A stretch of 64,000 nucleotides of DNA from an uncultured Planctomycetaceae bacterium (GCA_963813715.1 CAWFAK010000008.1:576001-640000); one strand, 5' to 3'; positions 16,400 through 58,033 are shown, counted from the stretch's first letter. Translations and numbers: made by a program. The notes: generated from the sequence alone by a model not told the origin.

Positions 16400-16492
16400 G
16401 CCGCTCGACGTTTCAGGCGGCGGCCCCAACATGCCGCTCGATTCAGGCGGCGGCCCCAACGTGCCGCTCGATTCAGGCAGCGACCCGAACGC
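16400..16492. repeat. About 3 tandem 30-bp units overlapping the lpxB stop codon
   Basis: GCCGCTCGATTCAGGCGGCGGCCCCAAC(A/G)T units starting at 16400, 16433 and 16463. Confidence 0.85.
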
Positions 16493-17640
16493 GGTCGACC
16501 GGAGCCAGATGGCTCAGAATGCGATCGGCCGTGCGGCCCGTCGCGCCAGGCTGGCCGATTTCCGCGCGGAGTTGTCGCAGCTCGCGGGCGACCTGGGCGA
16601 GCTGGTAAGGGCTGCCGATCCACTCGTTGACGACGGCCGCCATCTCGCGGACCGTGCGATCAGGTCGCAGCACGGGCATCCATTCGGGCATCAGGCGGCG
16701 GCCCGCGATCAAGTTGGGAAGCGTGATCGAATTGACGTGCACGAGCGGCCGCACCAGGGCATACGTCAGCGGACTGACCCGATAGAGAACCACGGCCGGC
16801 TTCGCCCGCGCCAGCATTTCCAAACTCACCGAACCCGAAACCATCACGCAACAGTCGGAGGCCTCGATGATCTCGGGCGTGCGGCCCAGGCAAAGCTCCA
16901 CGGGCAGCGACCGCGGCCGGGAGGCGAGCATCTTCTGGCAGCGCTCGCGATGGCGCTCTTTGTAGCAAGCGACGAGAAAATGCACGTCCGGGTGCCGCGC
17001 GGCCACTTGCTCCATCAGGTCGATCTGCAGCGGGAAGTTCGACTCGACCTCGTGATTCCGCGACCCGGGCAGAACGCCCACGATCCGCCGATAGTCGGCC
17101 TGGGCCTTGCGGCAGAACGCCTCGTCCAAGCGGCTCTCGGCCACGTCGTCAAAAAATGGGTGGCCAACGTATTCGGCGTGAAGCCCACGCTCGGCGTACC
17201 ACTTCGGTTCGAAGGGGAGTCCGCAGAGAATGTGGTCGACGAACTTCCGCATCCGCTTGATCCGCCACGGTCGCCCAGCCCCAAAGTTGGGGCGGCAGAT
17301 AATAAAAGACGGGGATGCCGGCCGCCTTCGCCTTGCGGGCGATCCACCAGTTGAAGCCGGGAAAATCGACCAGCACGACTGCGTCGGGCGGCGATTCGCG
17401 AAACATCCGCTCGGCCCGTTTGACGAGCGAGTAAAACTGCCAGAGCAGGGGGATGACGCGGAAGATGCCGACGACGGCCAGGTTGGTCAGTTCGTAGTTG
17501 ATGTCACAGCCGGCCTCGGCCATTTTCGGTCCGCCGTAGCCGCTGAACTCCAGATCGGGCTGACGCCGCTGGAGTGCGTGAATCAGGCGGGCCGCATGCT
17601 GGTCACCGCTGGGCTCGCCGACGGAGAAAAAGATCCGCAT
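16473..17640 (-). CDS. lpxB: Lipid-A-disaccharide synthase; frameshift near 17270
   Basis: [49 protein letters not shown]. Confidence 0.95.
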
Positions 17641-17643
17641 GAT

Positions 17644-18381
17644 TCAGGCCGCTTTCGTCCGCGGCGTGGCCGCGTCGAATTGCTGGGTCGCCCAAGCACA
17701 GCAGGAGGCGGCGTCGGCACGGAGGGCCCGCTCCACCGCCCAATTCCACGTTTCGGGAGCGACCAGTTGCTGCGGCAGCCGCAGCACGGCGATCGCATAA
17801 CCGGCCGCTTGTTGCACGGCCGCGTGCAGACGGATCGACGGCATCAGGTGCAGACTGTCGTGAACTTCCTGAAAGTCCTGGTGGCCGGGCAGGGCGCCCA
17901 GGTGCCGCTCGAAGCAGCTGAAGGCATGTCCCATCAAATCAGCGCTGCCGTGTCCGACGGGGCACAGAAAGGCGATGCAGCCGGCCGGCGGCAAACGACT
18001 GATCAACTTGAGCGTGGCGGCGTAGGCCGCGCGTGACGACAGGGACCGATGATATTCGGACGCATCGCGGACCAGCACGACGTCGAATTCGGTGCGGATC
18101 GAGGGCAGGGGATCGCTGACCGACGCGCAACTGAAGCTGCAAGTCGGCGCGTTCCGCCGGGCGTCGAGAATATTTTTGGGCGATTCGTCGATCCCCGTGC
18201 ACTGGATGCCGAGCGAGTCGAAAAATTTCGCCAGCTCGCCCCGCCCGCAGCCGACTTCTAAAACGCTGAACCCCACGCCCAGGCGCAGCGCGGACAACAG
18301 CCGCGACATGACCTTACGGGGAATGCCGGTTTGCTCGAGCAGATCGCTCGATTCCGCGCTGAGACGCTGCCAGGGTGACAT
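17644..18381 (-). CDS. Class I SAM-dependent methyltransferase-like protein
   Basis: VLEVGCGRG, CTGID, FDVVL; stop lies 3 bp before the lpxB start. Confidence 0.75.
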   Translation of the reverse strand: MSPWQRLSAESSDLLEQTGIPRKVMSRLLSALRLGVGFSVLEVGCGRGELAKFFDSLGIQCTGIDESPKNILDARRNAPTCSFSCASVSDPLPSIRTEFDVVLVRDASEYHRSLSSRAAYAATLKLISRLPPAGCIAFLCPVGHGSADLMGHAFSCFERHLGALPGHQDFQEVHDSLHLMPSIRLHAAVQQAAGYAIAVLRLPQQLVAPETWNWAVERALRADAASCCAWATQQFDAATPRTKAA

Positions 18382-18540
18382 CACGCACCTCCCAAAGGGT
18401 CGGCCGGTGCGCTCTTTCGGACGGGGAAAGGTGAAGGGCCGAGCCAAGGGGGCGAAGAATATCGCGCGCCCCCGATCCGGGCAATGGCGGAATCCGGGCG
18501 AATTTCGCCGCTGGTTCGGCGGATGGAGAGGTCGCGCTTT

Positions 18541-18663
18541 GGGTGCCACGGTTGAGCTCGCTCAACCGTGCTCTTCGCGTCCAGCACCGTTATCAGCACC
18601 TAAAAAGAGCACGGCCGAGCCGAAGTGTCTCAGCCGTGGCACCCGAATTTCCGGACACCCTCA
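18541..18663. repeat. REP doublet (family C) fused to an IS-end-like sequence
   Basis: GGGTGCCACGGTTGAGCTCGCTCAACCGTG...CACGGCCGAGCCGAAGTGTCTCAGCCGTGGCACCC, then GAATTTCCGGACACCCTCA; inverted homologue at 21986-22096 + 23280-23303. Confidence 0.85.
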
Positions 18664-18783
18664 TCCCGTGCTAAAATGAACGGGCGACGCTGCGATTCCG
18701 TTGCGGCTGCACAGAACTCCCGGATACAACCGTGGGCGCCGACCGGTGTATCCTCCAGTCACGGGTGACGAGCCAGAATTCGT

Positions 18784-19507
18784 ATGGGAAGAAATTTCGA
18801 GAATCGCAAGCAATCGATCTTCAAGAACGGCTGCTTCGAAATCCAAGCTCTACGCCAAGTACGGCAAGAAGTTGTACATGGCGGCCAAGAATGGCGTGCC
18901 CGACCCCCACGCCAATCCGGCCCTCCGCAGCATCGTCGAAAAGGCCAAGAGCGAAAACGTCCCGAGCCATGTGATCGAAAAGGCGATCCAGAAGGCGAAG
19001 GGCGGCGGGGGCGAGGACTTCCATCCGGCGCGTTACGAAGGATTTGGTCCCGGCGGCGCCTTAGTCATCGTCGATTGTCTGACCGACAACAATCAACGGA
19101 CGATCTCCGAAGTCCGCAGTTGTTTCACCAAGACCGGTTCCAAGTTGGCCGGCAATGGCGCCGTCGCGATGTCGTTCGAGCACGTGGCCGTCCTCTCCTT
19201 CAAGGGCGACAACGAAGACCAGGTGTTGGAAGCCATGCTCAACGCGGACGTCGCCGTTGAGGACGTCGAAAGCAAGGACGGCTACATTACGATCTTCGCT
19301 CCGCCTGCCGAGTTTTATAAAGCGAAAACGGCCCTGCTGGAGGCCCTCCCCGACGTCGAACTGGAAACGCAGGAAATCACCTTTCTCCCACAAGCCAGCA
19401 AAACGCTGAGCGCGGGCGACCAGTCGAGCTTCGAAAAATTCCTCGAGATGCTGCACGAGTGCGACGACGTGCAGGACATCTACCACAACGTCACGTTTCC
19501 CGGCTAG
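18784..19507 (+). CDS. YebC/PmpR-family protein; frameshift near 18826
   Basis: MGRNFENRK.., NPALR, YEGFGPGG, CLTDN..RT, DDVQDIYHN. Confidence 0.92.
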
Positions 19508-19704
19508 CAGGCCGTTGACGTCGTTGTAAACACGGGTCGCCCAGCCTCCGATCCGGATTGCTGCCGCACGCGTCGATCCGACTCCACCGACGGTTTCCCC
19601 ACGCAATTTCATTGCGGCATGCGTGTGAGAGTGGTTGCGATCGGTGCGACCGTCAGTAGAGAATGGGTGCCGACAACAACCTGCTCAAACAAGGGAGAGG
19701 GGAG

Positions 19705-20190
19705 ATGCCGAAGCCCGCGAAGAACACGATTTGCCTGTGGTACGACGGCGGCGCCGAAGAGGCGGCGCGGTTTTATGCTCGGACATTTCCCGATTCCTCT
19801 GTGGGTAAGATTGTGCACGCGCCGGCCGATTATCCGGCAGGCAAGAAAGGAGACGTGGTGACGGTCGAGTTCACCGTGCTGGGCATTCCCTGCCTCGGCT
19901 TGAACGGCGGGCCCGTGTACAAGCACACCGAAGCTTTTTCGTTTCAGGTCGCGACCGCGGACCAGGCCGAAACGGATCGCTATTGGGACGCCATCATCGG
20001 CAACGGCGGAGAAGAGAGCATGTGCGGCTGGTGCAAGGACAAGTGGGGCCTGTCGTGGCAAATCACGCCGATCGTCCTGACGAAGGCTATCGCCGATCCC
20101 GATCCCGCCGCCGCCAAGCGGGCCTTCGAGGCGATGATGCAGATGAGAAAGATCGACATTGCCACAATCGAGGCGGCACTTCGCGGATGA
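19705..20190 (+). CDS. VOC/PhnB-like (3-demethylubiquinone-9 3-methyltransferase family) protein
   Basis: KNTICLWYD..AEEAARFY, LNGGP, CGWCKDKWGLSWQI; GGAG RBS. Confidence 0.92.
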   Translation: MPKPAKNTICLWYDGGAEEAARFYARTFPDSSVGKIVHAPADYPAGKKGDVVTVEFTVLGIPCLGLNGGPVYKHTEAFSFQVATADQAETDRYWDAIIGNGGEESMCGWCKDKWGLSWQITPIVLTKAIADPDPAAAKRAFEAMMQMRKIDIATIEAALRG

Positions 20191-20224
20191 AGAATTTCGT
20201 CAGAAGCGCGGCGCCGGTCGCGGG

Positions 20225-20947
20225 TCAGGCAGCCCGGCGGCGGCCTGCTTCGGGCCGTTCGGCCGCGGAAAGCTCGGAGAGAGCGGGTAACCCTACGGCG
20301 GCCCGGGCGATGGCGTCCTGTCGCGCCATTTCGGCCTGCAGTCGCTGCGCGTAGACCTCGAGTTCTTCCCGCTCCAGGTTGGGGGGGACGACGAATGCCG
20401 GACCGCCCCGTGCATGGATCCGCGTGAACGGCTTCGGCAGCTGCATATCGGTCCAACTGCCGGGAATCCGCCAGGCGCGGCGGCACGCGTAACCGGTGGG
20501 AATAATGATGCGACCCGAGCGCGATGCCAAATAGATGATGCCCGTCTTCATCTGGCGACGCGGACCGCGCGGTCCGTCGGGCGTAATGGCCACGTGCAGA
20601 TCGCGCACGCGGTCGAGCAGCTCTCGCAGGGCGCGGCTCGCCCCCCGCTTCGAGGAGCCCCGCACCGAACTGATGCCCAATCGCCGCATGGCCTCGGCCA
20701 GATAGGAGCCATCTTGATGCGGGCTCACCAATCCGGCCATTTTCTTCGGCCGTCCGGCGAAACAAGTCATCAAAATGTCGTCGTGCCAGATGCAATACAG
20801 AAACCGGCGGTCACCCGTGTCCTCGTAGGGGCAGCACCCGTCGACTTCCGTGGCGACCTCGATCCGGCACGTTTTGAACAGCGCCCGCACGAGCACGACC
20901 GCGACGAAGGCCACGAGCTTCGTAAGATAGCGGTTGCGGATCTTCAG
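20225..20947 (-). CDS. DUF374 lysophospholipid acyltransferase-family protein (LpxJ-like)
   Basis: CIWH, VS.H.DG, VRGSS.RG, ITPDGPRGP, SWTDMQLPKPF; probable CTG start at 20947 (otherwise GTG 20914). Confidence 0.88.
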   Translation of the reverse strand: MKIRNRYLTKLVAFVAVVLVRALFKTCRIEVATEVDGCCPYEDTGDRRFLYCIWHDDILMTCFAGRPKKMAGLVSPHQDGSYLAEAMRRLGISSVRGSSKRGASRALRELLDRVRDLHVAITPDGPRGPRRQMKTGIIYLASRSGRIIIPTGYACRRAWRIPGSWTDMQLPKPFTRIHARGGPAFVVPPNLEREELEVYAQRLQAEMARQDAIARAAVGLPALSELSAAERPEAGRRRAA

Positions 20948-20979
20948 AGACCGACTCCGACGGCGGGAAGCACGAAATC

Positions 20980-21073
20980 CGAATGAAATGACGAAAAAAT
21001 GTCCAAATGACCTAAGCCCGAAGGAAGACAGTTTTCCCTTCAGGGCTTCGGGCTTCCTTCGTCATTTCATTCG
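20980..21073. repeat. Nested inverted repeat (long hairpin)
   Basis: CGAATGAAATGACGAA/TTCGTCATTTCATTCG (16 bp perfect) enclosing AAGCCCGAAG/CTTCGGGCTT (10 bp perfect). Confidence 0.75.
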
Positions 21074-21299
21074 AGCTTCGGGTTTGCGCCCGGAGATTGT
21101 ATCGACCCGCGGAAATCCTCAAATCCCAGTTGCCCAGGGCCTCAGTCCGCCTTTGCCTCAAAACCTCATTCGATTGCGCTCGGGCCTGTGAATTGTTGGA
21201 GAAACCCCCTACGGGCGGACACTGGAGCAGCAGCGCGAAGGGTGAGGGGCCGCGCGGCCATGCGGCATCCAGCGCAGTCCGTCGGGCTCGTTCGCGCGG

Positions 21300-22096: not shown

Positions 22097-23279
22097 GAGG
22101 GGATCCGGGAATTAGGCGCTCTAAGAGAAAGGGTCTCCGTGGGTTAATGTTTTTTTGTCACAAAGAACATTGGCCCCACGGGAGACCCAAGGATGGGACA
22201 TTCTACCCGCGCCTCAGCAAGCCTGCATGCGTTGGTGAAGTTGATGATTCCTGTGTGCCAGCGTGCTGAGAGAGAGCACCCGCGTCGCGGTCCGGGACGA
22301 CCACCGGAGATTGCTGATTGGGTCATGCTCGTGCTCGTAACCGTCGCGATTCTCAAATACCGTCGGAACAAATCCGCCCAATACCGATTTCTCAGTCAAA
22401 ACCGAGCCAAGCTTTTGGAATGGATCGGGACCACCCGGTTCCCGTCACGCAGCACGTACTGTGAGCGTTATCGAAGGGCCCATCGCCTGTTTCAGGTTGC
22501 CGTTCGTCTTCAAGGCAGGTGTCTGTTGAAGCATCAAGTCGGCGACGCACGTTGTGTGGCTGTCGACAAAAGCCTGATTCGGTCGTTGGGTCCGAAGTGG
22601 CCAAAACGGCTGCGCATCCAAGGAAAGCTTTTGCGGGGTGTGGACCGTGAGAGCACGTGGGGCTATTGCAAGCACCATGGTTGGGTCCAGGGCTACTCCT
22701 ACGAAGTCCTACTTTCTGCGGGGAAAAAGGGACTTGTTGTGCCCCTCTTGGCGTCGGTGAATCAGGCTCACTGGAGTGAGCACCGGTCATTCCCCGAAAA
22801 GATTCCACACTTGCCTCGACCCACCAAGTACGTCTTGGCGGATAGCGGCTACGACGGCAATGACCACGCTGACGCCATCGAGCGAGATTCGCGTGGCAAC
22901 CCGACAGGCCGGCGGTTTTTATGCCCTCAAATCTACCGAGGAGGACATCGTCGCCAGCCGGGACCATTTCACGACGCACATCGTGCTCGAAGAGAAGTCC
23001 GCACTCGCCGGGAGGCGCGATATCAGTACTTCCAGACGAAGACAGCCCGGCTTCACTATTCGCGGCGAGGCAGAACCGCCGAGCCGTTCCACGAATGGTT
23101 CAAATCCACATTCCAACTTCACGAGCGAGCCTGGCACCGTGGCTTGGACAACAACCGCACCCAAGTTCTCGGCGCCCTGTTCGCCTACCAGCTACTCGTT
23201 CGCTACAACCGCCGAAAACACAAACACAACGGCTCAGTTCGCTGGATCCTCGACGGCCTCTGAATTCCCGGATCCCCTC
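22097..23279 (+). mobile_element. Insertion sequence, 1183 bp, DDE transposase
   Basis: Perfect 17-bp TIR GAGGGGATCCGGGAATT; direct repeat GAGCAAGCTC at 22087-22096 and 23280-23289; removing it restores an intact REP. Confidence 0.93.
22193..23263 (+). CDS. DDE transposase (DDE_Tnp_1; IS4/IS5/IS982-like clan)
   Basis: VAVDKS, WGYCKHHGWVQGY, VLADSGYD, Y.RR..TAEPF..WFK; uninterrupted; stop overlaps the right TIR. Confidence 0.9.
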   Translation: MGHSTRASASLHALVKLMIPVCQRAEREHPRRGPGRPPEIADWVMLVLVTVAILKYRRNKSAQYRFLSQNRAKLLEWIGTTRFPSRSTYCERYRRAHRLFQVAVRLQGRCLLKHQVGDARCVAVDKSLIRSLGPKWPKRLRIQGKLLRGVDRESTWGYCKHHGWVQGYSYEVLLSAGKKGLVVPLLASVNQAHWSEHRSFPEKIPHLPRPTKYVLADSGYDGNDHADAIERDSRGNPTGRRFLCPQIYRGGHRRQPGPFHDAHRARREVRTRREARYQYFQTKTARLHYSRRGRTAEPFHEWFKSTFQLHERAWHRGLDNNRTQVLGALFAYQLLVRYNRRKHKHNGSVRWILDGL

Positions 23280-23763
23280 GAGCAAGCTCAACCGTGGCAC
23301 CCAAGGCAAATCTTCCCTCTGAATTCCCGGACAGTCTCACGACACACGTATGCCACCTAGCGGAGCCCCACGCCCCATCGCGCGGTGGGACCACTTTCGG
23401 CGCCCCCCTTATATTAAATGTGAGGGTACCGTCACGGCGGGACCACTTTTTTGTTGTCCCGGCGGGTCCACTTGTCCCACCGGCGCATCGCCTCGGATGA
23501 GTCCGCCGGCTTGGCTGGAAGGCGATCGGCGACCTCCGCCTGGTCATGCCGCTCGATCCCGTCCCAGTCCCACTCAGGGTGGACGGGCCGGAAATAACGG
23601 CCCAAGTCTGCCGGGGATCCTTTTTCCCCCCTATGTGAAAACGGATCCCCACCACCAGCAGAAAGCCTCTTTTGTTCCGCCTGGTCCTTCCCGGCGGGCA
23701 AGTTTTGACCGCAACTCACTTCTCGCGGCGGTCGCGGGATCGTATGTGGCGATCGCCCGCCCC

Positions 23764-23869
23764 GCTGGTTCCGTAGGACAAGCTGCCAGCTTGTCCCCTT
23801 GTCCCATGTTTCAGCTTCGGAATCGGGGACTGGAGCGGGCAAGCTGGCAGCTCGCCCTACGGAACCAGC
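23764..23869. repeat. GTAG-type REP doublet (family E)
   Basis: GCTGGTTCCGTAGGACAAGCTGCCAGCTTGTCC ... GGGCAAGCTGGCAGCTCGCCCTACGGAACCAGC. Confidence 0.85.
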
Positions 23870-23880
23870 CGCCCGGGTTT

Positions 23881-24059
23881 GTCTCCGGTCCCGTCCCATT
23901 GAGAATGTGTCTGAGAATGTGTCCGGACCGGATTTTTCCCGCCCAACGGGAATTCGCGCTGCGCGTCCGGACCGACGACAGCCGAGTGGGCGATGTCGAG
24001 ATTTGCCGGGAAATGCTCGATAAAACAACGTGTCCCGTCCCGGTCCCGTGTCCGGTCCC
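23881..24059. repeat. Cluster of short GTCC(C/G)-rich repeats
   Basis: TGAGAATGTGTC x2 (23900-23923), CCGGTCCCGTCCC, AAAACAACGTGTCCCGTCCCGGTCCCGTGTCCGGTCCC. Confidence 0.55.
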
Positions 24060-24334
24060 AGCCCTGACCGGCAATCACGTTCGCTCGCGCACGCTCGGCG
24101 TCGCCGAAGCGCACTCGCGTTCAACGATCTCCGTGGTCCACGCGGGCATGGCTCCTGCTGTCGCGCGAAGGGCGCGCATCGCAACCGGCCGCGAAACACG
24201 TCGCTATTTTCATTCAGCCACAAAATGGTGGTTTGAACAAGATCGATTTTCTACGCCGCCGCTCTCGTGTCCGTTTGTCGCACGGACAGAACTACGGAGA
24301 CGAAATCGCAGAGCATTGTGGTTGGCGCAGGGCC

Positions 24335-24457
24335 TCAAGAAGCATCGATGCCGCCGTCCTCTTGACGCGGAACGGGAGCGACAAGAGCCAAGGCCTTCAA
24401 CAAAAAAATGCCAAGCTCCTCATGAAGGTCCCCGCTGCGAATGTTCTTGTCGCGCAT
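24335..24457 (-). pseudogene. 40-codon N-terminal remnant of a DUF4365-like PD-(D/E)xK nuclease
   Basis: Manual translation MRDKNIRSGDLHEELGIFLLKALALVAPVPRQEDGGIDAS*; G..(E)E and ED.GID resemble nuclease motifs I/II; not in the ORF track. Confidence 0.45.
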
Positions 24458-24620
24458 ACCGGGCGTGGCGCATGCTCACTTCTGCCGTTCGCCGAAAGCC
24501 GCCGCTCGAAATTGAAAAACGCGGATCAACGACTTCTTGCAATTACGCAACTTGTCAAATGGCGTGTTTTCCTGGCTCGCAGCGTTCCGTATCCCTTCGG
24601 GGTTCAAGGCGAATGCTCGG

Positions 24621-25588
24621 TCAGGAGCTCCGTTCGCGACGCGACATGGACACTCTATGACGCCACACGTCCCGAAGTGCCTGGGTCACGTTGTCATGCG
24701 TCGGCATCAGATGGGCCTTTGAAATCCCCTCAGCAAATAGCAGCCGCTTGAGCTCCCAAATTGCGTTAGCTGCCAACGTGTGCTTAACGAGCGACCCAGC
24801 CGGCAACAGCCTTTCGTACCGTGGCCACGCGCCATCCAAGAGATAGTTAGCATCGGCCCCTCCAATATATGTGAACAAGCCTTCTTGCGCATTCAGGAAG
24901 CCGATTTCGCTCCGGTCGACTGTCATTACCTTGACTCTCGTTTTCGAAAGGGCGAGATGTTGGAGGCTCAGTCCCCAAACGGCGATCGGGTCTTTCTGTC
25001 TTTGCGAAGCTGAATCGGCGGCGAAGAAGGCGGCTTTCTCGGCGCGATATGTCCAATCGAGAAAACGGGTCCGGATGCCGTGGTGTTGAGCGATCGCACC
25101 GGCCAGCCTCCATGGGTCGGACGCGTCGTCGGCCTCGGTAAGCAAAAATGGGAGATGGAAACCCGAATACCATTGGAAACCCCCTCCAGGGATTCGTAGT
25201 CCCAGCTCGTCGAGCATCCGAACAAATTCGAACACCGCCGCAAATTCAAATCGCTTTCGAACAATGAACGATCGGATCCTCTTCTTCCTCCAATGCGAAA
25301 TGTCGCGTCGAGCGTTTCGGCTTCTGCAGCCGCATCACTCAGATCGACCGCGGCATCATACAGCTGGAACAGTTGGTCTGATCGGACCTCCGGTCGCCAG
25401 AGGGATGGAACGAGCGCGTATCGCGATTTTGACTGTCCTCGAAAGATCCATTGGCAGTGCCACGATCCGTCCTTCAGCCAATGCCTCGAGGAGCGGCGAA
25501 GGTCGGCCAGAAATGGCGCGGCTTCGTCGTAAGAACGCTCGATGATTTGGCAAAGGTGGGGTTTCCGAGGTCCGCGTTTTTTTGCCAA
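24621..25588 (-). CDS. FRG-domain protein; frameshift near 25240
   Basis: WIFRGQ..YALVPSLWR, AQHHGIRTRFLDWT...AAFFA, NAQEGLF, GIS..HLMP. Confidence 0.88.
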
Positions 25589-25709: not shown

Positions 25710-25710
25710 T

Positions 25711-33761: not shown

Positions 33762-34052
33762 TGCTCCCCCGCTTCCTGCCGGTCGCGGTCCGTCACGAAG
33801 CCAACCCGTTCGCAAAAGCGGGGCAAATTAGTGCAATTCGACGAATGCGCGAAGGCGAGAAGACGAATTGACGGATCTGGGAAACAAAGCTAAAGAATGC
33901 CCGTTTTGAGCGGGCGGTTCTCACGCCCATCCGGAAGTCCGAGCGGAGGACTTCTCTCAGGGACTTGCCGATCGAGCGAATCCCCGGATTTGTCTCGAGC
34001 ACGTCGTTCGCGACTTCCTCCAATCCTCAGTTCAGCGGGTCGATCGCCACGC

Positions 34053-34871
34053 ATGCATCCATCTGCCGACATCATCAAGCTTCCCTCTCGCGGGCCCGAT
34101 CACGAACTGACGCTGATCATTCCCGGATATAACGAGGAGAAGCGGCTGCCGCGGACGCTCAGCCAGGTGCAGGACTATCTGGATCGCTGGGGCGTCGATT
34201 ACCGCGTGATCGTCGTCGACGACGGGAGCCGCGACGGCACGGCGGCTGCCGCCGAAGGATTTGGGCCGCACTTTCGCGTCATTTCGCTGCCGACCAATCG
34301 AGGCAAAGGGGCCGCCGTTCGCTCGGGAGTCTCGAGCGCAACGGGCCGCGTGATCGCCTTTACCGATGCCGATCTGCCCTATTCGCTGGACAGCTTGCGG
34401 GCCGGCTTCGACCTGATCCGCGCGGGTCAGTGCGAAGTGGCCTTTGGTGCCCGCGACTTCGAGGGATCGCGCCAGCTTGTGCGTCGCCGCACGTTGCGAC
34501 GGGCGGCCTCGGTCGTCTTCAGTCAGATCGTCCGCTTCCTGGTCTCCCGGGACGTCACCGATACGCAGGCGGGCCTCAAGCTGTTTAGCGCTCACGCCGG
34601 CCAGGCAATCTTTTCGCGGACCGTGATCGACGGCTTCGCGTTTGATGCCGAAGTCGTCTTCCTCACGCATCACCTGGGCCTGACGTATCGACGGATTCCG
34701 GTCGACCTGATCAACGAAGAGACCTCCAGCCTCTCGGTCTGGCGGCACACGCTGCCGATGTTGCGCGAAGTGTTTCAAATCCGGCTGCGGGCGCTCCGCG
34801 GAGCATACGAGGCCGCCGCGCCGGTGGCGGCTCGCGACTTCGACGACTCGCGCAAACGTCGGGCGGCATGA
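34053..34871 (+). CDS. GT2 polyprenol-phosphate glycosyltransferase (DPG/DPM synthase-like)
   Basis: IIPGYNEE.RL, VVDDGSRD, NRGKG.AVR.G, FTDAD, DTQAGLKLF, GFAFD.E. Confidence 0.92.
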   Translation: MHPSADIIKLPSRGPDHELTLIIPGYNEEKRLPRTLSQVQDYLDRWGVDYRVIVVDDGSRDGTAAAAEGFGPHFRVISLPTNRGKGAAVRSGVSSATGRVIAFTDADLPYSLDSLRAGFDLIRAGQCEVAFGARDFEGSRQLVRRRTLRRAASVVFSQIVRFLVSRDVTDTQAGLKLFSAHAGQAIFSRTVIDGFAFDAEVVFLTHHLGLTYRRIPVDLINEETSSLSVWRHTLPMLREVFQIRLRALRGAYEAAAPVAARDFDDSRKRRAA

Positions 34872-34913: not shown

Positions 34914-36212
34914 TTGGCTCGCGACCTGTCACTTTCCTCTCCCGGCTACCTCACGCGGACCGCTCCTTGGGCGGATCGCGCCGCTTGGACGGCCTGGGCG
35001 GCGCTGTTCGCGACGATCAGCATTCTGATTCTGGCGGGCAGCGATCACAGCGTCGTGTCCGCATACCGGGACGCGACCCGACAATGGTTCGCCGGCGGCG
35101 ACATCTACACCGACACGGGGCACGGCTTTCTCTATCTGCCGATTGCCGCCATCCTGTTCGCGCCGTTCGCCTGGCTGCCGACGGCCGCCTCGGAAATTGG
35201 CTGGCGGTTCGTCGCAATCGGCGGCTTCGCAGTCGGCATCTATCGACTGTGCCGGCTGGCTGAAGGGGGCCGCTCGGACACGAAGTTCGCCCTCTTGACG
35301 CTGGCTTCGTTGCCGCCGGCCTTAGCTTGTGCTCGCAACGGGCAATCGACCCTCGTCATGTCCGGCCTGATGATGCTGGCGTGCGTCGATCTGGCCGAAG
35401 AACGCCGTGGTTGGGCCGCCCTGTGGGCGACGCTGGCCGTCGCGCTCAAGCCGCTGGCGATCGTCCTGCTGCTGTTGGCACCGTTCCTGGATCGCCGTCT
35501 GGCGTGGCGGGTTGCCGTCGGACTGGCCGTCATTCTCTGCGTGCCGTTTCTGGCCGGTCGCCCCGCGTACGTGATGGATCAGTATTGGAAGTGCACACAA
35601 ATGTTCCGCGCATCGTCCTACTGCGGAATCATCGAGCTCTGGGCACAGCCGTTCTGCGTGCTGGGTCTGCTCGGAGTCAAATTGTCGGAATCGACGCAGA
35701 CGGTGATCCGCGTCGTCGCGGCCGGCGGTGCGATCGGACTGTGCCTCGTCGCCCGCTTCCGCTCGACTCCCGCGCGAGCCGCGGAATATCTGCTGGCGAT
35801 CTCCGCGCTTTACATTCTGCTGTTCAATCCGCGGACGGAAAACAATACGTATGCGATGCTGGGACCGGTGATCGGCCTGCCGTTGCTCGCGGCTCTTGCG
35901 GCAAACCGCCCGAGCCGCGCGGAGGTGACCTTTCTCTCGGTGCTCTTAGCAGGGATGGCGCTCGGGGACGCGCTGGTTCGCCCTCTCGCAGGCGACGGCG
36001 AGCACATTTGGTTGACCCCCTCGTTGGCCGTCGTCTTTTCGCTCTATCTGATGCATCGCCTGTTTTTCCGCGAGCCGGGCCGGGCCACGGCGCGGCGGGA
36101 AACCAACCAATCCGCGGCGGCACGACGTCTTGCGCGGTCCGCACGCGCCGATGATCGGGTCGACGTCAGGAGTTCGGTGACACTTTGGGTACGACGTTCG
36201 ACCGCTACCTGA
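34914..36212 (+). CDS. GT87/DUF2029-like polytopic glycosyltransferase
   Basis: FLYLP..A.LF.PF, NGQS, ALKP, FNPRTE.NTY; both ends uncertain. Confidence 0.82.
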   Translation: MARDLSLSSPGYLTRTAPWADRAAWTAWAALFATISILILAGSDHSVVSAYRDATRQWFAGGDIYTDTGHGFLYLPIAAILFAPFAWLPTAASEIGWRFVAIGGFAVGIYRLCRLAEGGRSDTKFALLTLASLPPALACARNGQSTLVMSGLMMLACVDLAEERRGWAALWATLAVALKPLAIVLLLLAPFLDRRLAWRVAVGLAVILCVPFLAGRPAYVMDQYWKCTQMFRASSYCGIIELWAQPFCVLGLLGVKLSESTQTVIRVVAAGGAIGLCLVARFRSTPARAAEYLLAISALYILLFNPRTENNTYAMLGPVIGLPLLAALAANRPSRAEVTFLSVLLAGMALGDALVRPLAGDGEHIWLTPSLAVVFSLYLMHRLFFREPGRATARRETNQSAAARRLARSARADDRVDVRSSVTLWVRRSTAT

Positions 36213-37311: not shown

Positions 37312-38902
37312 TCAAGCCGCCTTGAGCGTGCGTGCGTGGCGAGCCGACTCGATCCACCCCGTGACCACGTCGAGGTCCGGCTGGTGTCCGCCGCCGCGGA
37401 TGGCCCGCTGCCCCTCGGAAGTGGAAATGAACAGGTCGACCCGATCAAGCAGCTCGAGCGCTTCGCACTTGGCCAGGTCTTCCGGCTCGCAGATGCCGCA
37501 AGCCACCAGGATCTTCACGTCGAGCACGCGCAGATTCGGCACGCGGCAGGCCAGCCGCGACTGAATCTGCCATTCGCGAACCGTGTCGGCCTTGATGTGC
37601 CCGAGCTTGAGCCGCAGGGCGACGTCTTCCGGGCTGCGGGCCAGGAGCTGCGCCACGGTGCGGACGCCGATCGCCTCGAGCTTTTGAGCCGTCCGATTGC
37701 CGACCGAAGGCGCGTCGGCCAGCGACGACGTCGGATCGAGATGGAACTTCGACAGCCGGGGGACGGGCTTCGATTGACGCGGCGCGGCTTCCGCCGTGGC
37801 GCCGCCCGCGGACTTCTTCGACGCGCCGACGGGCGTTCCCGCCTCGGTGCCATCGGCTTCGATCGCCTCTCGATTCATCTCGATCGAGACTACGGGGGCC
37901 GTAGCGGCGCTCATCGGTCGCAGGTAGGTTCCGGTGCCATGCTTGGTTCCCACCAGCCGGGGCTTGATCGCATCGAGTGTTTCCAACGTGGTGCCGAGCA
38001 CGTCTTCGGCGTGCAGCTTCCGCACGGTCTTTTCGTCTTCCGGCAGGGCCTTGGTGACTTTGCCCGACTTGCGGAATTCCTTGAAGGCCGCTTTGACGAT
38101 CCGCCGTTCGCGGGCGCCGGCCCGATTCCGCTGCCAGCGCAGCGCCGGGATACGGAACCAGGCTCGCATGCCGGCCATCGCGATGCCGCACTTGGGCGGC
38201 GTGACGCCCGAGGCGTCGATGGCCCGCTCGAGAATCCGCGCGATGCCGATTACCGCGTTGCCCAGGCATTCGGCCAAGCTCACCCGCAACTCATCGTCCA
38301 GTCCCGCGGGCGGATTCTTCCAGCCTTTTTGAATGTTGTAGTGATCGATGACGACGTCGTAGTGTTCGTGCGACAGCCGCGCGCCGTTTTTCACCAGTTC
38401 GGCCAACCAGCGGGGTCCGTTGGAGACTTTGATCTCGGGATAGCCGCCCAGGTCACGTTCGAGGATCGCGGTCAGCAGGTCGTACGAACGAAAGACGCTG
38501 CGATCACAGGCCCGGTGGACGATGCCCGCCTCTTCGGTCTGAGCCGTGTGCAGCGGCATCAGCGGATCGGCGTAATAGTGGCTGAGCACGCCGGCGGCAT
38601 ACGCGGCTTTGACCCATTGTTTGCCGTGCAGCGCGTCGACGGTGTGACGGTACCAGGTCTCCGCCGCCTCGACCGCCCCGCCCCAACACTTCTCACGCAC
38701 GTGGACGACGTGATTGCGAAAATCTTTGAATTTGTCGTCCGGGGCCGTGGCACCAGCGAGCAGCGATTCGCCGTGCTTGAGGAACATGCGGCGCCAGGCT
38801 TCCGCGTCATCGCGACGCAGGTGCCGCAGGGCGTCCAGAACCAGCTTGTGATGAGTGCTCGTGCAGCGATGCGAGAACAAGAACGTTCTGAAGCACTGAC
38901 AT
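37312..38902 (-). CDS. Zn-dependent phospholipase C/P1-nuclease-like domain + C-terminal DUF4332 (HhH) domain
   Basis: THHK, PDDKFKDF.NHV.H, LSHYYAD..MPLHT; C-terminal APSVG...A.KL..IG..TV..L, WQ.Q.RL; ATG 38902 with GGAGG RBS and an early indel. Confidence 0.75.
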
Positions 38903-39124
38903 CCGTGTCCTCCGGGGCGCAGAGTCGCCGGCGTCGCCAAACAGCATCCGTTCCGGGCGTCTCCTCAATTTTCGGCCAAAGCGACAGAGCGATCTGACTT
39001 TCGATGTCGACCGCGGCATAACCAGACCGTGTGTTTGAGTCTCTGCGACCGATAGTGGCCGCGGCCCGATCCGTCGGATAACTTAGAGAAACGCCTGGAA
39101 CCCTGCCGCCTTGCCCCCCGCCGT

Positions 39125-52646: not shown

Positions 52647-53850
52647 TCAGGGAACGCTCGGCGACGAGCTGCCCGATTTGGGCCCGAGCACGACCGCGCC
52701 ATTTGCGAAGCGAAACGTCAGTCCGTGCGGATCGAGCAGTCTGCGCAGAAACTCGGCCGCCGGCAATCGTGGCAGATCGACGGACACCTTGCGGTCCAGA
52801 TCGATGCCCGCGTTCCGCAGTTCTTTCGCGTTGTATTCGAGCGGCAGGCCCTGCTTCTTCAGTTCCTCGAACAGTTCTTGCAGGCTGACGCCCTCGGCCT
52901 GCAGCTTGAACGCTTCCTTCTCGACGGGCAGCGCCGACTTCTTGATCAGCGTCGGCTGAGCATTCTTGGGAGCGCGGAGTGCGGCGGCCACCATCTCATG
53001 CTGCTCGAGTGTACCGCGGACGACGAGCTTGTTGCCGTGAGCTGTCGCGTCGAGCCCCTCGATCAACGAGTGCAACATCCGTAATGTTTGGGGCGCCGAC
53101 TTGCCGCGGAGTGTGTAAGTCCGCTCGACCGCGACGTGTTCCGGCACATGGACCAGGCGCACGCCGGATTCGCGGGGCAGCCATTCGAAGGTCAGGTCGA
53201 ACTGGTTGAGTACCAGCGAGAGGGCCTCCGACGCGGTCGCCTCGGGGATCGTGGCGCCGGCCCACAGATCGTGCGGAATTTGTTCAAGGCCCGCGATCGA
53301 CAGGCCGAATTGCCGGCCGATGCGGGATACGATGTCGCTCGGGCGATCGAAGTCGCCCCACGTCACCGTGCTCCGGTGCCCGCGCAGCTTGGGAGAGCAC
53401 TTCGGTGCCCACCGCCGCCCGCTCCAATTCCCGCTCGCGGAGCGCGATTACCGTCCGCAGCCGCAGCACGGGGACGGACGGGGCGACGATCAGACAATTG
53501 CCGACCTGGGTGACGCCGAGCTGGATCGACTGGGCAATTTCGTTGACGGCGGCCCGTAGCGGGCGGTCGCCCGTTTCGATCTGCAGTTCTTGCTCGGGAT
53601 CGACCCGCCGGTCCAGCAGGATGGCGATTTGCCGCTCGTGGGAGAGCCGCCGCAAAATCGCCCGGAGCGGCACACCTTTCCAGGACCCCGAAATCGGCTG
53701 CTCGAGGGCCGTCGTGAAGCGGCGAGCGGTCCGATAGTGCGTGGGGAGCGGGTCCGGGAAGAGACTCGTCGGCGCCTCGCTGGGGGCAGCGGCAGCGGAC
53801 GCCCACAGGCAAGCGCAGAGCGTCATTTGCCTGTAAAAAGTGGATCGCAT
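52647..53850 (-). CDS. Hypothetical secreted protein with secretin/STN-like repeats; frameshift near 53390
   Basis: Signal-like N-terminus; W...PLR..L..L....I.LDRRVDP; repeated L..LF..L, L..LL.P.GLTF. Confidence 0.6.
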
Positions 53851-53890
53851 GGTTATTCCGTCGCCCAGGACTTCGCAATACAATGGTAGC

Positions 53891-55921
53891 ATGCCCGAGC
53901 AGACAGGTCCTACGCAGGCGGTTCAGGCGGTCGGCATCGACCTGGGAACGACCTATTCGGTCGTGTCCCATCTCAACGAAAGCGGCGAACCGGTCACCAT
54001 CCCCAATCAGGAAGGGGAACTGGCGACGCCGTCGGTCGTGCTGTTCGAGGGAGAGCAGCCGATCGTCGGCACCGAAGCGCTGCGAAATTCGATCCGCTTT
54101 CCGGATCGCGTGGTCGAAAACTCCAAGCGCTTCATGGGTGACGTCGGCAAGCGCTGGTGGATCAACGGCCGCCCCTATGGGCCCGTCGACATCGCCACGC
54201 TGATTCTCAAGAAACTGGTCTCGGCCGCGCAAGATAAGATCGGTCAGATCTCGCAGGCCGTCATCACGGTCCCCGCGCAGTTCAGCGACGCGCAGCGGCA
54301 CGCCACGATTCAAGCCGGCCACGCAGCCGGTCTGGAGCGGGTCGACGTCATCAACGAGCCGGTGGCCGCGGCGCTCTGCTACGTGCTGGGGAGCGAAGGA
54401 CTCTGGTTTAGCGAGCTGGCGGGTGAGCAGCGGATTCTCGTCTACGATCTGGGCGGCGGCACGTTCGACCTGTCGCTCGTCCGCTATCGCCAGGACGAGG
54501 TCACCGTCATCGCCAGCAGCGGCGATCTGCATCTGGGCGGCATCAATTGGAACGAAGCGCTCGTCGATGCGATTGCCGGCCAGTTCGCCAAGTCGTTTCG
54601 CGACGATCCGCGCACTAATCCGGAAAGCCTGCAGGCCCTGGCGCTCGAAGTCGAGCAGGCCAAGCGCGGACTATCGGTGCGTCCCCGCGCCGCGTTGACC
54701 TGCAACCACGGCGGCCACCGCAAGACGTATCAGGTGGAGCTCGAGCAGTTCCAGCGATTGACCAAGCCGCTCGTCGATCGCACCGAAGAAATCACGCTCA
54801 AGCTGCTCAAGGACAACAAGCTCGGCTGGGCCCACGTCGACGTGGTGCTGGTCACGGGCGGCGCCTCCCGCATGCCGATGATCCGCGGGCGGCTCAAACA
54901 ACTGAGCGGCCGCACGCTGAATACCACGCTCTCGCCGGACCTGTCGATCGCCCACGGCGCGACGTACTACGCCGGCATGCTGCTCGCGAACGACAAGTTC
55001 GCGCGCTCGATCCTCACGGAGGATGCCAACCGCCGCCTGGCGAAGGTGAAGCAACAAAGCGTCAACGCGCGCGAGCTCGGCATCTTGATTCGCGACATGA
55101 AGACACAGACCCGCGTGCCCCATTATCTGATTCCGGCCAACACGCCGCTGCCGACCGAATCGACGCAGCAGTTCGGCACGGTGGTCGAGAATCAGCGGCG
55201 CGTGCACCTGGTGATCGTGGAGAGCGGCACGTCGCCCGATCAGCCGTACGTGGTGCTGGGCGACTGCCGGGTCGACGGACTGCCGCCCAACCTGCCGGAG
55301 GGCTCCAAGATCGACGTGACGATCAGTTACGACCCGCAGGCCACAGTGCACGTATCGGCCAAAGATGCGGCCAGCGGCAAGTCGGCGCACACGGAGATTT
55401 TGCGACAGGAGAATATCGTCGCCCAATTGACGTCGGACCCGCGGGTGGCCAGCTCGGATTCGGTCGTGCTGGCGGAGGCAAATCCCAATCCGTTCAAGAA
55501 AACGGGGCCGGGCGCGACCGGGGTCCGCGTCCCCGACCTGGCGAACGATCGCTGGGAGGCGTTCTTCGATCAGACGCCGTCCAAGCCCATTCCGGTGTGT
55601 CACGAGTGCGGACGTCCGCTCGACGAGAAGGGGATATGTCCCACCTGCGCGGCGGCCGCCCTGGCGAAGAGCAAGCCCGTTCCAGCGGAAAAGTCACCCG
55701 TGGCCAAATCCCCCGCAGACCGAACGCCGAGCCGTCCGCAGCCCGGTGCACGAACTGCGGGCGTGAGGCCGGCTCCCAAGCCGCCGACGCAGGAAATGGT
55801 CAAACCTCCGTCCGCCCAACCGCAGCGCAAGCCGCCGTCTCCCGAGCGGCCTAAGCGCAAGCCGTCGTCGGCCCCGCAAGATGAGGGCGAAGACGAATTC
55901 TGGAAGTACGTCGGCGAGTGA
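53891..55921 (+). CDS. Hsp70-family protein (non-canonical DnaK paralogue)
   Basis: GIDLGTT, TVPAQF, INEP.AAA, DLGGGTFD, GGASRMP; no DnaK helical lid. Confidence 0.92.
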   Translation: MPEQTGPTQAVQAVGIDLGTTYSVVSHLNESGEPVTIPNQEGELATPSVVLFEGEQPIVGTEALRNSIRFPDRVVENSKRFMGDVGKRWWINGRPYGPVDIATLILKKLVSAAQDKIGQISQAVITVPAQFSDAQRHATIQAGHAAGLERVDVINEPVAAALCYVLGSEGLWFSELAGEQRILVYDLGGGTFDLSLVRYRQDEVTVIASSGDLHLGGINWNEALVDAIAGQFAKSFRDDPRTNPESLQALALEVEQAKRGLSVRPRAALTCNHGGHRKTYQVELEQFQRLTKPLVDRTEEITLKLLKDNKLGWAHVDVVLVTGGASRMPMIRGRLKQLSGRTLNTTLSPDLSIAHGATYYAGMLLANDKFARSILTEDANRRLAKVKQQSVNARELGILIRDMKTQTRVPHYLIPANTPLPTESTQQFGTVVENQRRVHLVIVESGTSPDQPYVVLGDCRVDGLPPNLPEGSKIDVTISYDPQATVHVSAKDAASGKSAHTEILRQENIVAQLTSDPRVASSDSVVLAEANPNPFKKTGPGATGVRVPDLANDRWEAFFDQTPSKPIPVCHECGRPLDEKGICPTCAAAALAKSKPVPAEKSPVAKSPADRTPSRPQPGARTAGVRPAPKPPTQEMVKPPSAQPQRKPPSPERPKRKPSSAPQDEGEDEFWKYVGE

Positions 55922-55955
55922 GCGGGCCACCGGTTGCGGGCAAACCGGGCGGCGA

Positions 55956-56129
55956 TCATTTCGTGGCGGGAGCCGTCGTGGGAGGCGTGGCCGGCTTGTC
56001 GCCCGGTTTAGCTGGGGCTCCGAGGTCAGATTTCGGCACCTCTGGGGGCTTCGGCTTCGCCGCTTCCTCACACCCGATCGCGATCGCTCCGAGACAGATC
56101 GTCAGAGCCACTGCCAATGTCTTTCGCAT
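55956..56129 (-). CDS. Small Pro/Lys-rich lipoprotein (57 aa)
   Basis: MRKTLAVALTICLGAIAIGC lipobox; AAGGAG RBS. Confidence 0.7.
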   Translation of the reverse strand: MRKTLAVALTICLGAIAIGCEEAAKPKPPEVPKSDLGAPAKPGDKPATPPTTAPATK

Positions 56130-56515
56130 GATTTGAAGCTCCTTCTGCGTTGCCCGAGTGTTGGCCAGTCCGGAGACGCCGGAGTTTCCTCGCGTTTCTT
56201 GCAAGTGGCGAGGTCCGAGCTGTCCCAAGATTAAACGAACTGTAACGAACAAAGAGTAAGACCGCGGTCGGGCGGACTTATTCCCCGAATCTTCTCTGGT
56301 CGACCGAAGCTGCCCGTCCGACGAAATTGCCTGTCTGACGGAAGTTCACTGTCGTGACGAGAGATGTTGCCGGTCTATCCGACGATCGCTCCCATTCCGG
56401 CCGAAACTTGCGGATTCTCCCGATTGGGCACAGACTCAAAGCGCGGAGGGATCCGACCCGCCGACCGCCGCGATCGAGTTTCCTGCTCATAAGGGGACTC
56501 CTTGCATGCGGCTGC

Positions 56516-56545
56516 GGGAATAAACCGGCCCGCTGGGATGTCCTA
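56516..56545 (+). promoter_or_regulatory. Possible ECF-type promoter upstream of the sigma gene
   Basis: GGGAATAAAC...TGTCCTA resembles GGAA/GTC ECF promoter elements. Confidence 0.3.
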
Positions 56546-56563
56546 GAGTTGTGAGGTTTCGCT

Positions 56564-57076
56564 ATGGACGACAGTCGATCCACTCCGAGCCTATCGGAGT
56601 TGGCCCGTCTGCATTACGCGCTAGTTTACCGCTACGCGTATCGTCTTTGCGGCTCGGCCGAAGAGGCGGAAGACCTGACGCAGCAAGCATTTCTCACGGC
56701 CCATCGGCGGTTGCATCAGCTTCGTGACCCGCAGTCCGCCAAGTCGTGGTTGTGCGCGATCGTGCGAAACACGTTCCTCACGCGTGTTTCGGCCCAGCGG
56801 GGCGCCCGGATGGTCCCGCTGCACGGCTACTGGGATCCGGTCCGGGAAGAAACGCCGTCGGCGAATTTTGACTCGAACGACCTGCAGCAGGTGCTCAACG
56901 AGCTCCCGGAGGAATTTCGAGCTCCACTGGTCTTGTACTACTTTGAAGAGTTCAGCTACAGGCAAATCGCCGACCAACTCGGCGTGCCGATCGGCACGGT
57001 GATGAGCCGGCTGGCTCGGGCCAAAACGCATCTCCGACGGCGGTTGGAGGCGCTGCAATCCGCTCCGGCGCGCTAG
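56564..57076 (+). CDS. ECF RNA polymerase sigma factor
   Basis: AEDLTQQAF, KSWL..I.RN, LPEEFR, SY.QIA..LGVPIGTVMSRL.RA. Confidence 0.95.
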   Translation: MDDSRSTPSLSELARLHYALVYRYAYRLCGSAEEAEDLTQQAFLTAHRRLHQLRDPQSAKSWLCAIVRNTFLTRVSAQRGARMVPLHGYWDPVREETPSANFDSNDLQQVLNELPEEFRAPLVLYYFEEFSYRQIADQLGVPIGTVMSRLARAKTHLRRRLEALQSAPAR

Positions 57077-57091
57077 TCGGACGGTGCTAAG

Positions 57092-58033
57092 GTGGGCATG
57101 ATGGACTGTCGACAGGCTCTGCAAATCCTCGAATTCGACGTGCCAGACGCGGACGGTCTGCCGGAGGAGATCTGTTCGGCGGAGGAACACGCGGCCGCCG
57201 TGGCGCATCTCGAGAGCTGCCCGGCGTGTGCTCGCACGGTGCGCAATCGCCGCGAGCTCGATCGCACGATTGGCCGCGTAATGCGGACCGTGGCGATCCC
57301 CCGCGGAGCCCAGCAGCGGCTGCTCGCACAAATCGCGGAACTCGAAGCGGCTGGGACGATCGCCTCAACCACGGCGAACGATCACGGCTCGTCTGACGCG
57401 AACGATGGCATCGCAGCCGGAGCGGGGCGGTCGCCCGCCGTGGACAGCGAAGTGCCGTCGATCATTCCCGCGAAGCCGCTGAGCCGACCCACGCGGCGGC
57501 GATTCCTCAAGAGCCTGATTCCATTGACAGCTTCGGCCGTGGCGCTCACCGGGTTCTTCGGCGTCGTTTGGTTCTTCTCGCCGCGGTGGAGCGTTGCTGA
57601 AGTTTCTCAATCGCTGACCGAGATCGACTTCGCCTCGCTTCAGGCTCTGCCGAACTTCACCGGCGGTGGTAAAGCGACGCAACTTCCGGGCGAGGCAGGC
57701 TGGGAACACCTCAAGTGGCAATGCGACAAGCAGGCCAAGGGGCTGCCCCTGGCCGCGAACGTGATTGCGGTCTACGGATTTGACGTCCGTACGCGGCAAC
57801 CCGAACCGATTCAGGGACTGATTGCCGTCATCCCGCGGAATCGCGTGCGCAATCCGCCGGCCGAAACGTCGTTGACCATGGCCGTGCCGACCAGCGGCTA
57901 CCTGACGGCGCGAATTGGGGAATCGGTCTGCGTGGCCTGGCAGGAAGGCGACTACGTCTACGTCTGCCTGGTGCGAGGCGGACCCGATTCGTTGTCGAGG
58001 CTACAGCAAGCCCTCGAGCAGCCAGCGGCCTAG
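57092..58033 (+). CDS. Zinc-finger (ZAS/zf-HC2) membrane anti-sigma factor
   Basis: HLESCPAC (HxxxCxxC), single TM, directly downstream of the ECF sigma. Confidence 0.85.
   Translation: MGMMDCRQALQILEFDVPDADGLPEEICSAEEHAAAVAHLESCPACARTVRNRRELDRTIGRVMRTVAIPRGAQQRLLAQIAELEAAGTIASTTANDHGSSDANDGIAAGAGRSPAVDSEVPSIIPAKPLSRPTRRRFLKSLIPLTASAVALTGFFGVVWFFSPRWSVAEVSQSLTEIDFASLQALPNFTGGGKATQLPGEAGWEHLKWQCDKQAKGLPLAANVIAVYGFDVRTRQPEPIQGLIAVIPRNRVRNPPAETSLTMAVPTSGYLTARIGESVCVAWQEGDYVYVCLVRGGPDSLSRLQQALEQPAA

Follow-up and report, generated by a model that had tools for sequence, protein, structure and literature searches.

We analysed a window of 64,000 nucleotides (G000:C8:576001-640000) from an uncultured soil bacterium of the Planctomycetaceae, the assembly of which (G000) comprises 7.49 Mb in 18 contigs, with 63.2% G+C and a completeness of 82.6%. 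Six unrelated proteins encoded in this window end in two alanines just before the stop codon. This free C-terminal Ala-Ala (hereafter AA), mostly preceded by arginine or lysine, had been proposed from the window alone to be a genome-encoded degradation tag. All six open reading frames (ORFs) are present, with C-termini exactly as given in that original prediction. Pfam agrees with the names of five of them, and the sixth, which has no Pfam hit, lies 3' of an extracytoplasmic function (ECF) sigma gene. The genes are:

16473..17252, minus strand, 3' part of lpxB (Pfam LpxB positions 131-321), ending in ..RVRVAA-stop, the two Ala codons being at 16476-16481
17149..17640, minus strand, 5' part of lpxB in another frame (Pfam LpxB positions 1-123), recognised by Pfam and by comparison with genome G002
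17644..18549, minus strand, S-adenosylmethionine-dependent methyltransferase-like gene, ending in ..PRTKAA-stop
20225..20914, minus strand, DUF374 protein, ending in ..GRRRAA-stop
33897..34871, plus strand, family-2 glycosyltransferase (GT2), ending in ..RKRRAA-stop
37312..38940, minus strand, Zn-phospholipase C with a DUF4332 domain (PLC-DUF4332), ending in ..RTLKAA-stop
57092..58033, plus strand, anti-sigma-like protein downstream of the ECF sigma gene, ending in ..EQPAA-stop, no Pfam hit

When compared with the locus of G002, which is 94% identical, lpxB has one extra base near 17268 that breaks the gene (CCACGGTC versus CCA-GGTC); the cause is a sequencing error, or the gene has recently become a pseudogene. 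The DUF374 family is usually linked to the transferase of 3-deoxy-D-manno-octulosonic acid (Kdo).

Genes were called with a crude home-made procedure: ORFs of at least 60 aa (45,237 in total) were given an iteratively trained codon log-odds score and picked greedily without overlap, which yielded 5449 genes in G000 at a coding density of 0.75. The C-terminus is fixed by the frame and the stop codon, and the choice of the start codon is irrelevant to it. The window overlaps 46 called genes, six of which have an AA end; seven other window ORFs of at least 60 aa also end in AA and all of them have negative coding scores. Since 114 of the 5449 called proteins (2.09%) end in AA, 0.96 would be expected among 46 genes (binomial p = 3.8e-4), in line with the earlier estimate of under one in about 50 genes by chance. 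A 64-kb window moved along the entire genome reaches six only at this place, the AA-richest stretch of the genome; in non-overlapping 64-kb windows, the counts are near Poisson (mean 0.92, variance 1.16). The C-terminal AA is 1.4 times as frequent as the internal AA dipeptide (114 versus 80.7 expected, p = 2.4e-4), and stricter coding thresholds give a similar enrichment (94/4261 and 67/2875). Dipeptides ending in Lys or Arg are much more enriched at the C-terminus than AA (KK 5.2-fold, AK 3.7-fold). Moreover, an R or K at positions -3 to -5 is found in 0.535 of the AA-ending proteins versus 0.386 overall, a value matched by proteins ending in LA (0.55), AS (0.55), SS (0.50) and SA (0.50). Hence, as a raw statistic, upstream basic residues do not set AA apart from other endings, and this part of the original prediction holds only for the arginine at -4 described below. 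On frequencies alone, the cluster of the window would look like an extreme picked post hoc.

For each window protein, 40 relatives were searched (11 of the same genus, 13 of other genera of the family and 16 of other families of the class, which are not independent samples), and the frame of each returned locus was read on to its stop codon. Five of the six proteins keep the motif [R/K]x0-2AA across genus, family and class. The AA end is found in 27 of the 30 relatives' LpxB orthologues, in all 19 genomes with a match for PLC-DUF4332 and in 24 of 30 DUF374 loci, where it follows an unalignable tail of varying length. All 13 GT2 orthologues with at least 57% identity have it (as [RK][RK]AA, RKAAA or RRTAA); the two orthologues at 45-49% identity end in RKSA, and paralogue-level hits carry AA in 1 case out of 14. 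For the methyltransferase, 14 of 17 loci end in AA (R.KAA within the genus), the rest ending in KVA, RVA or QRV. The methyltransferase family also displays a Cys-Cys-x-Trp-[AS] motif (CCAWA or CCQWAA) that lies close ahead of the R.KAA tail, about 12-20 residues from the C-terminus; all genus-level orthologues and several family-level ones have it. The anti-sigma-like protein, the sixth member initially proposed, is not a good one: AA is found in 7 of its 15 orthologous loci, the others ending in PSA, PAT, SAT or RPV, and the basic residue is absent. It is therefore a weak or doubtful member of the set.

Upstream of the motif, a stretch of 10-30 residues varies in length and is unalignable, and R or K recurs at -3/-4. 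In the DNA of the orthologous loci, each family draws on the full set of four GCN codons at either Ala position, and TGA, TAA and TAG stops are all present, except for the methyltransferase loci, which all have TGA. Furthermore, the 20 bases 3' of the stop codon are unrelated among orthologues. Since alanine codons are exchanged synonymously, stops vary and the downstream DNA is unrelated, selection acts on the end of the protein.

As a genome-scale control, the first 2 Mb of a contig of a single congener (G005:C2:1-2,000,000, out of a genome of 9.2 Mb) were used, in which the same model called 1312 genes. Reciprocal best hits were kept when the alignment came within 40 residues of both C-termini with a coverage of at least 60% and an identity of at least 35%, giving 556 orthologue pairs with a median identity of 67.6%. 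When the G000 protein ends in AA, its orthologue does so in 14 of 15 pairs; other terminal dipeptides are kept in 118 of 541 pairs (22%; Fisher p = 1.2e-8). Among pairs with diverged tails (positions -12 to -3 less than 50% identical, ungapped from the end), AA persists in 9 of 10, and other dipeptides do so in 25 of 331 (7.6%; p = 3e-9). Other common or GC-rich endings are rarely kept, such as AR (0/6), RR (0/5), GR (0/6) and SR (0/11), and likewise RG (0/5), AS (0/6), TA (0/5), AK (1/8) and RS (2/10). An avoidance of accidental AA ends was also considered and rejected, as 5 of the 541 non-AA proteins of G000 have an AA-ending orthologue in G005, a number not clearly below expectation. The terminal AA is a real, lineage-specific tag under selection on unrelated proteins; the genome-encoded tag initially suggested is thus borne out. 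A test of raw enrichment, the refuting condition named in the original prediction, would have wrongly dismissed this signal. On the methodological side, raw counts of C-terminal dipeptides miss such tags and conservation between orthologues detects them.

The range of the tag was followed in database homologues clustered at 90% identity (n = 120 per family). LpxB ends in AA in 115 of 120 homologues, all with at least 55% identity, and four of the five exceptions are aberrant in length. For LpxC, 101 of 120 homologues end in AA, 12 in VA, 2 in SA, 2 in TA and 1 in PA, the last residue being Ala in 118 of 120. For ClpX (at least 78% identity), 116 of 120 end in AA, including 54 GSRAA, 44 DSAAA and 13 GSAAA. 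Outside the family of G000, none of 29 LpxB loci (25-37% identity, among the best 30 loci from 80 genomes across the phylum) has AA, and the sole locus of the family among those 30 does; in the other families, LpxB stops directly after its last helix (..RAAEEILKLI). AA is also absent from all 30 LpxC loci found outside the family in the phylum-wide sample, a weaker comparison since 28 of them carry a C-terminal extension. This extension of 147-172 residues, ending in a ..KFMLVD-like sequence, probably reflects fusion to the following gene of fatty-acid or lipid A synthesis; the two stand-alone proteins end in ..KAKVY and ..KIARVV. In the clade of G000, LpxC stands alone with an AA tail. Among representatives of LpxC clusters at 50% identity, many still have AA or R.AA at identities of about 43% and above, below which such ends become scarce (AA in 19 of the 79 proteins of stand-alone length). 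The tag and its short extension are thus a trait of a class-level clade and not of the phylum. The planctomycete-wide scope proposed at the outset thus has to be narrowed to the class-level clade of this genome.

Among the 114 AA-ending proteins of G000, Arg is enriched at -4 (30 versus 12.8 expected) and at -3 (21 versus 12.5 expected). Conversely, Leu is found at -3 in 2 proteins versus 9.3 expected, R, A and K being predominant; the strongest ssrA form, ..LAA, is thus avoided. In the LpxB family, position -4 is R in 44% and position -3 is R in 38% and K in 20% (R/K 58%). In the LpxC family, -4 is R in 36% and -3 is R in 57% (R/K 60%), the tails being GRAA, RRAA, RAAA or SRAA. The ClpX family ends in D-[G/D]-S-[A/R]-A-A, with S at -4 in 98% and A (53%) or R (47%) at -3. 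An AlphaFold2 model of LpxC (40-sequence alignment) has a mean predicted local distance difference test score of 91.9, which drops to 75 and then to 47 within the final 15 residues, the tail being modelled as a helix. Two other kinds of C-terminal signal were rejected. PEP-CTERM sorting signals have a hydrophobic transmembrane helix ahead of a terminal basic cluster, and the tails seen here are polar or charged (for instance ..SAAERPEAGRRRAA and ..DFDDSRKRRAA). A tag added by transfer-messenger RNA (tmRNA) does not apply, as the AA codons belong to the reading frame of each gene, ahead of its stop codon, and are thus encoded.

Many of the tagged proteins take part in the synthesis of lipopolysaccharide (LPS). 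Pfam annotation was done for the 60 AA-ending proteins with the highest coding scores out of the 108 outside the window, so that 66 of the 114 are annotated in all. Beside the LpxB and DUF374 of the window, they include LpxA (..HRRAA), LpxC (..LRAAA), KdtA/WaaA (..STVAA), KdsB (..QRRAAA), an LpxL-type lipid A acyltransferase (..RRRAAA), a Kdo hydroxylase (..HAKAA), HldE (..GRQAA) and a GT9 heptosyltransferase (..RRPIAA). Other AA-ending sugar or envelope enzymes are a GT4 MraY/WecA-like transferase, a DegT-type sugar aminotransferase, a GT41 and a pyruvyl transferase. Beyond LPS, the tag is found on five ABC (ATP-binding cassette) ATPases, ClpX, SMC, a ParA-like ATPase, a sigma-54 activator, two histidine kinases and various metabolic enzymes. 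Among the 66 annotated AA-ending proteins, the tag is strikingly concentrated on lipid A/LPS enzymes. Pathway genes looked up afterwards add LpxD (..RRLRDAA) and LptB (..WDDQAA); these prospective look-ups gave 2 tagged out of 6 versus 0.13 expected at the 2.1% background (p ~0.006). Taking all look-ups together, 12 of 17 pathway families are tagged, ten of these 12 having been found through the AA ending itself. MsbA has no hit above the family cut-off in G000, with four candidates without AA and one fragment with AA, and LpxH gave only a weak sub-threshold hit in G000. The HldE-GT9 pair occurs twice with identical tails (..ESGRQAA and ..RHRRPIAA; G000:C12:3343-5913 and G000:C7:1111522-1113794), due to either duplication or assembly redundancy near a contig end, and was counted once. 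A 329-aa ORF adjoining lpxA and lpxC (G000:C9:91042-92031) ends in ..AALRSAA.

The machinery that could read such a tag is encoded in the same genome. The tmRNA of G000 (C17:540576-540934) encodes the tag AEKQVALAA and thus, in the comparison called for by the original prediction, shares the terminal AA. Besides ClpX, G000 encodes a tandem pair of clpP genes and three ftsH loci, with one member of each set split; the split clpP (G000:C9:219510-220677) and the split ftsH (G000:C2:53396-55163) are each matched in two pieces and appear to be frame breaks. ClpX, located outside the window (G000:C16:184362-185645), itself ends in ..PRDDSAAA, and the unfoldase hence bears the tag expected to be its own ligand. 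Compared with E. coli ClpX (PDB 8e91), the G000 protein keeps GYVG (Y153, V154), SITRDVSGEG (T199, V202) and GGRKHP (R228, H230). According to PMC7652416, these six residues of the E. coli protein bind the Ala-Ala-COO- of ssrA, and human ClpX, which has Leu at the positions of T199 and H230, does not degrade ssrA substrates. In a screen of random C-terminal 5-mers in E. coli reported in PMC10862746, 91% of the top 100 degrons end in Ala-Ala and are ClpXP-dependent; Arg at the second position, which corresponds to -4, is favourable, and Gly or Ser before AA is poor.

Several neighbours of the tagged window genes, including two envelope genes, do not carry the tag:

34914-36212, plus strand, GT87 integral-membrane glycosyltransferase next to the tagged GT2, end not AA
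36185-37564, plus strand, LptF/LptG-like permease, an envelope gene near the tagged GT2, end not AA
56564..57076, plus strand, ECF sigma factor preceding the anti-sigma-like gene, without AA tag (..SAPAR)

A stretch of low coding score (window 22193-25235) contains a DDE transposase (22193-23263) and an FRG-domain ORF. It adjoins the gene group running from lpxB to DUF374 (16473-20914); the GT2 group begins at 33897. As for lpxB, rho looks frame-broken, with its RNA-binding domain and its ATPase domain in two overlapping ORFs (window 58622-59542 and 59467-60180, minus strand).

The best explanation, to which we give a probability of about 0.6, is that the AA tail is a genome-encoded, attenuated ssrA-like C-terminal degron of the ClpX C-motif 1 type. 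The terminal AA, typically with R or K at -3/-4 and carried on a probably flexible linker some 10-30 residues long, would act as a degron on about 100 cytoplasmic or membrane-peripheral proteins; it is concentrated on soluble enzymes that make lipid A, Kdo and heptose and on the ATPase of LPS export. Like the tmRNA tag (..ALAA), such a tail would be drawn into the pore of ClpX. We favour ClpXP as the reader, and FtsH in the membrane might be another. The protease could lower the whole LPS pathway together, and the tail of ClpX itself might serve in self-limitation or in competition with substrates. Since a strong Leu at -3 is avoided, turnover would probably be slow or conditional, not constitutive. 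What the sequences show of the degron originally proposed is the tag itself, its selection, its range within one clade, its bias towards one pathway and the conserved ClpX contacts; degradation, the identity of the protease and the physiology are what we infer from it.

Several observations weigh against this explanation. The proteome-wide count proposed as a check came out nearly negative: beyond the 1.4-fold excess over internal dipeptides, AA at the very end (114) is not above the composition of the tail, since AA at offsets 1-9 from the end occurs 141, 124, 122, 108, 114, 114, 106, 89 and 126 times, and shuffling the last ten residues of each protein gives 93 +/- 9 AA ends (z = 2.2). In five of the pairs with G005, AA is found in G005 alone and not in G000, and hence not every AA end is fixed. 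The enrichment on envelope enzymes, visible in the 12 tagged pathway families, does not extend to LpxK, LpxI, KdsD and all four KdsA-family genes, which were looked up in G000 and do not end in AA. SspB was not found in G000, the assembly being 82.6% complete. Furthermore, many tagged proteins are essential or housekeeping (LpxA, LpxC, LpxD, SMC) and ClpX itself is tagged, so that a strong degron would be costly. The tails DSAAA and GSRAA also resemble the Ser/Gly-AA tags that are poor degrons in E. coli (PMC10862746). A strong constitutive degron is thus disfavoured by the tagging of essential enzymes and of ClpX, by the scarcity of Leu at -3 and by the likeness of some tails to poor E. coli degrons.

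A chance cluster driven by GC-rich alanine usage would account for the same raw counts, AA being the commonest dipeptide at 63% G+C and the window a post hoc extreme: C-terminal AA reaches 2.1% and is no commoner than AA at neighbouring tail positions, and one genome should contain about 0.05 such windows, so that a scan of 250,000 windows would turn up many. It would not account for an AA kept in 14 of 15 pairs versus 22% (9 of 10 versus 7.6% in diverged tails), for the synonymous codon turnover, for 115, 101 and 116 of 120 homologues in three families, or for the concentration on one pathway. The last two residues of a protein are known to influence termination efficiency, and a nucleotide-level signal (stop context or a downstream regulatory overlap) might in principle hold GCN-GCN-stop in place; it would have to do so with all four Ala codons at both positions, all three stops and unrelated downstream 20 bases, and its effect would have to be both gene-specific and clade-specific. 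The conservation in G005 orthologues together with the turnover of codons and stops excludes chance and nucleotide-level causes alike, and we consider either extremely improbable.

Two other readings take the tag as real. [R/K]xAA-COOH may serve for docking to a reader that does not degrade its ligands, for instance a clade-specific scaffold binding C-terminal peptides, a chaperone or a localisation factor, which would gather LPS enzymes and other tagged proteins at a single site of the cytoplasmic membrane. The tagging of nearly a whole pathway fits the assembly of a metabolon, abundant and stable machines (ClpX, SMC) are tagged too, the tag arose in one clade and basic residues are enriched beside it. 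However, no candidate reader was identified, and AA-COO- is the exact ligand of a ClpX whose contact residues are intact and also ends the tmRNA tag of the same genome; a docking peptide would consequently need to escape ClpXP. We regard this reading as unlikely, though it is the main rival. Slightly less probable again is a degron read mainly by membrane-bound FtsH, or another AAA+ protease, instead of ClpXP. Three ftsH loci are present, the tagged LPS enzymes act at the membrane, and a tag on ClpX makes more sense with a different protease as its reader. There is also a precedent in E. coli, where FtsH degrades LpxC and KdtA via their C-terminal tails and accepts ssrA tags too. However, apart from AA the tails are basic or polar, and those of the LpxC family lack the non-polar character of the FtsH degron of E. 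coli LpxC, although FtsH itself is present. Many tagged proteins are not membrane-associated, and the random C-terminal screen in E. coli yielded only ClpXP-dependent tags, as PMC10862746 describes it.

AA degrons on single native proteins and the C-terminal control of E. coli LpxC are already established. In Caulobacter, CtrA is a single regulator with an AA degron. The Streptomyces regulator sigma-AntA ends in AA in 67 of 71 orthologues, and this end is a ClpXP degron that is stabilised by changing AA to DD (PMC7142297). The planctomycete tag resembles that of sigma-AntA as an AA conserved between orthologues on a native protein; sigma-AntA and CtrA are single regulators, whereas the tag is shared here by a dozen enzymes along one biosynthetic route as well as by an ABC ATPase and by ClpX itself. 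Natural ClpX degrons of the "C-motif 1" type, named after Flynn et al. 2001 and 2003 (cited in PMC7652416), end in ..LAA-COOH. As for ssrA and C-motif 1, a free C-terminal Ala-Ala is found here on a variable linker, in a genome with a tmRNA tag ending in ALAA and with the ClpX contacts kept. In contrast to the ssrA tag, the planctomycete AA is encoded in the genes and extends to about 2% of the proteome and a whole pathway; in contrast to C-motif 1, the tails have R, K or A instead of Leu at -3, with Arg enriched at -4. In E. coli, tail-dependent proteolysis of a lipid A enzyme, LpxC, sets LPS synthesis, and the planctomycete tag may be likened to this control, provided that it does lead to degradation. 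There, one or two enzymes are targeted through a non-polar tail by FtsH and an adaptor, whereas R/K-x-AA is carried by most soluble enzymes of the pathway. FtsH/LapB-controlled proteolysis of LpxC (and KdtA) is the subject of PMC11046580 and PMC6339880. Among the papers listed by literature searches, none deals with an AA tag of planctomycetes or of an LPS pathway, nor with a shared clade-restricted tag on one pathway and ClpX.

How LPS is balanced in Gram-negative bacteria beyond the enterobacteria is largely unknown, and the FtsH/LapB-LpxC solution of E. coli is not general. A short tag shared by a dozen enzymes would, if true, represent a different and simpler logic, namely the control of a pathway by a common degron. 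A broader proposal, which we put forward tentatively and at odds clearly below even, is that outer-membrane biogenesis in the class Planctomycetia might be organised as a post-translational "regulon": an attenuated ssrA-like R/K-x-AA degron of single origin would be carried by LptB and by nearly all soluble enzymes that make lipid A, Kdo and heptose, one AAA+ protease would lower the pathway together, and the ..S[A/R]AA tail of ClpX would act as a competitor or self-limiter. Such a turn-down of the whole pathway might occur for instance in the budding cell cycle or under envelope stress. With about 100 proteins, including ClpX, SMC, ParA-like and ABC ATPases, kinases and a sigma-54 activator, the tagged set would be the first candidate proteolytic regulon of planctomycete cell biology.

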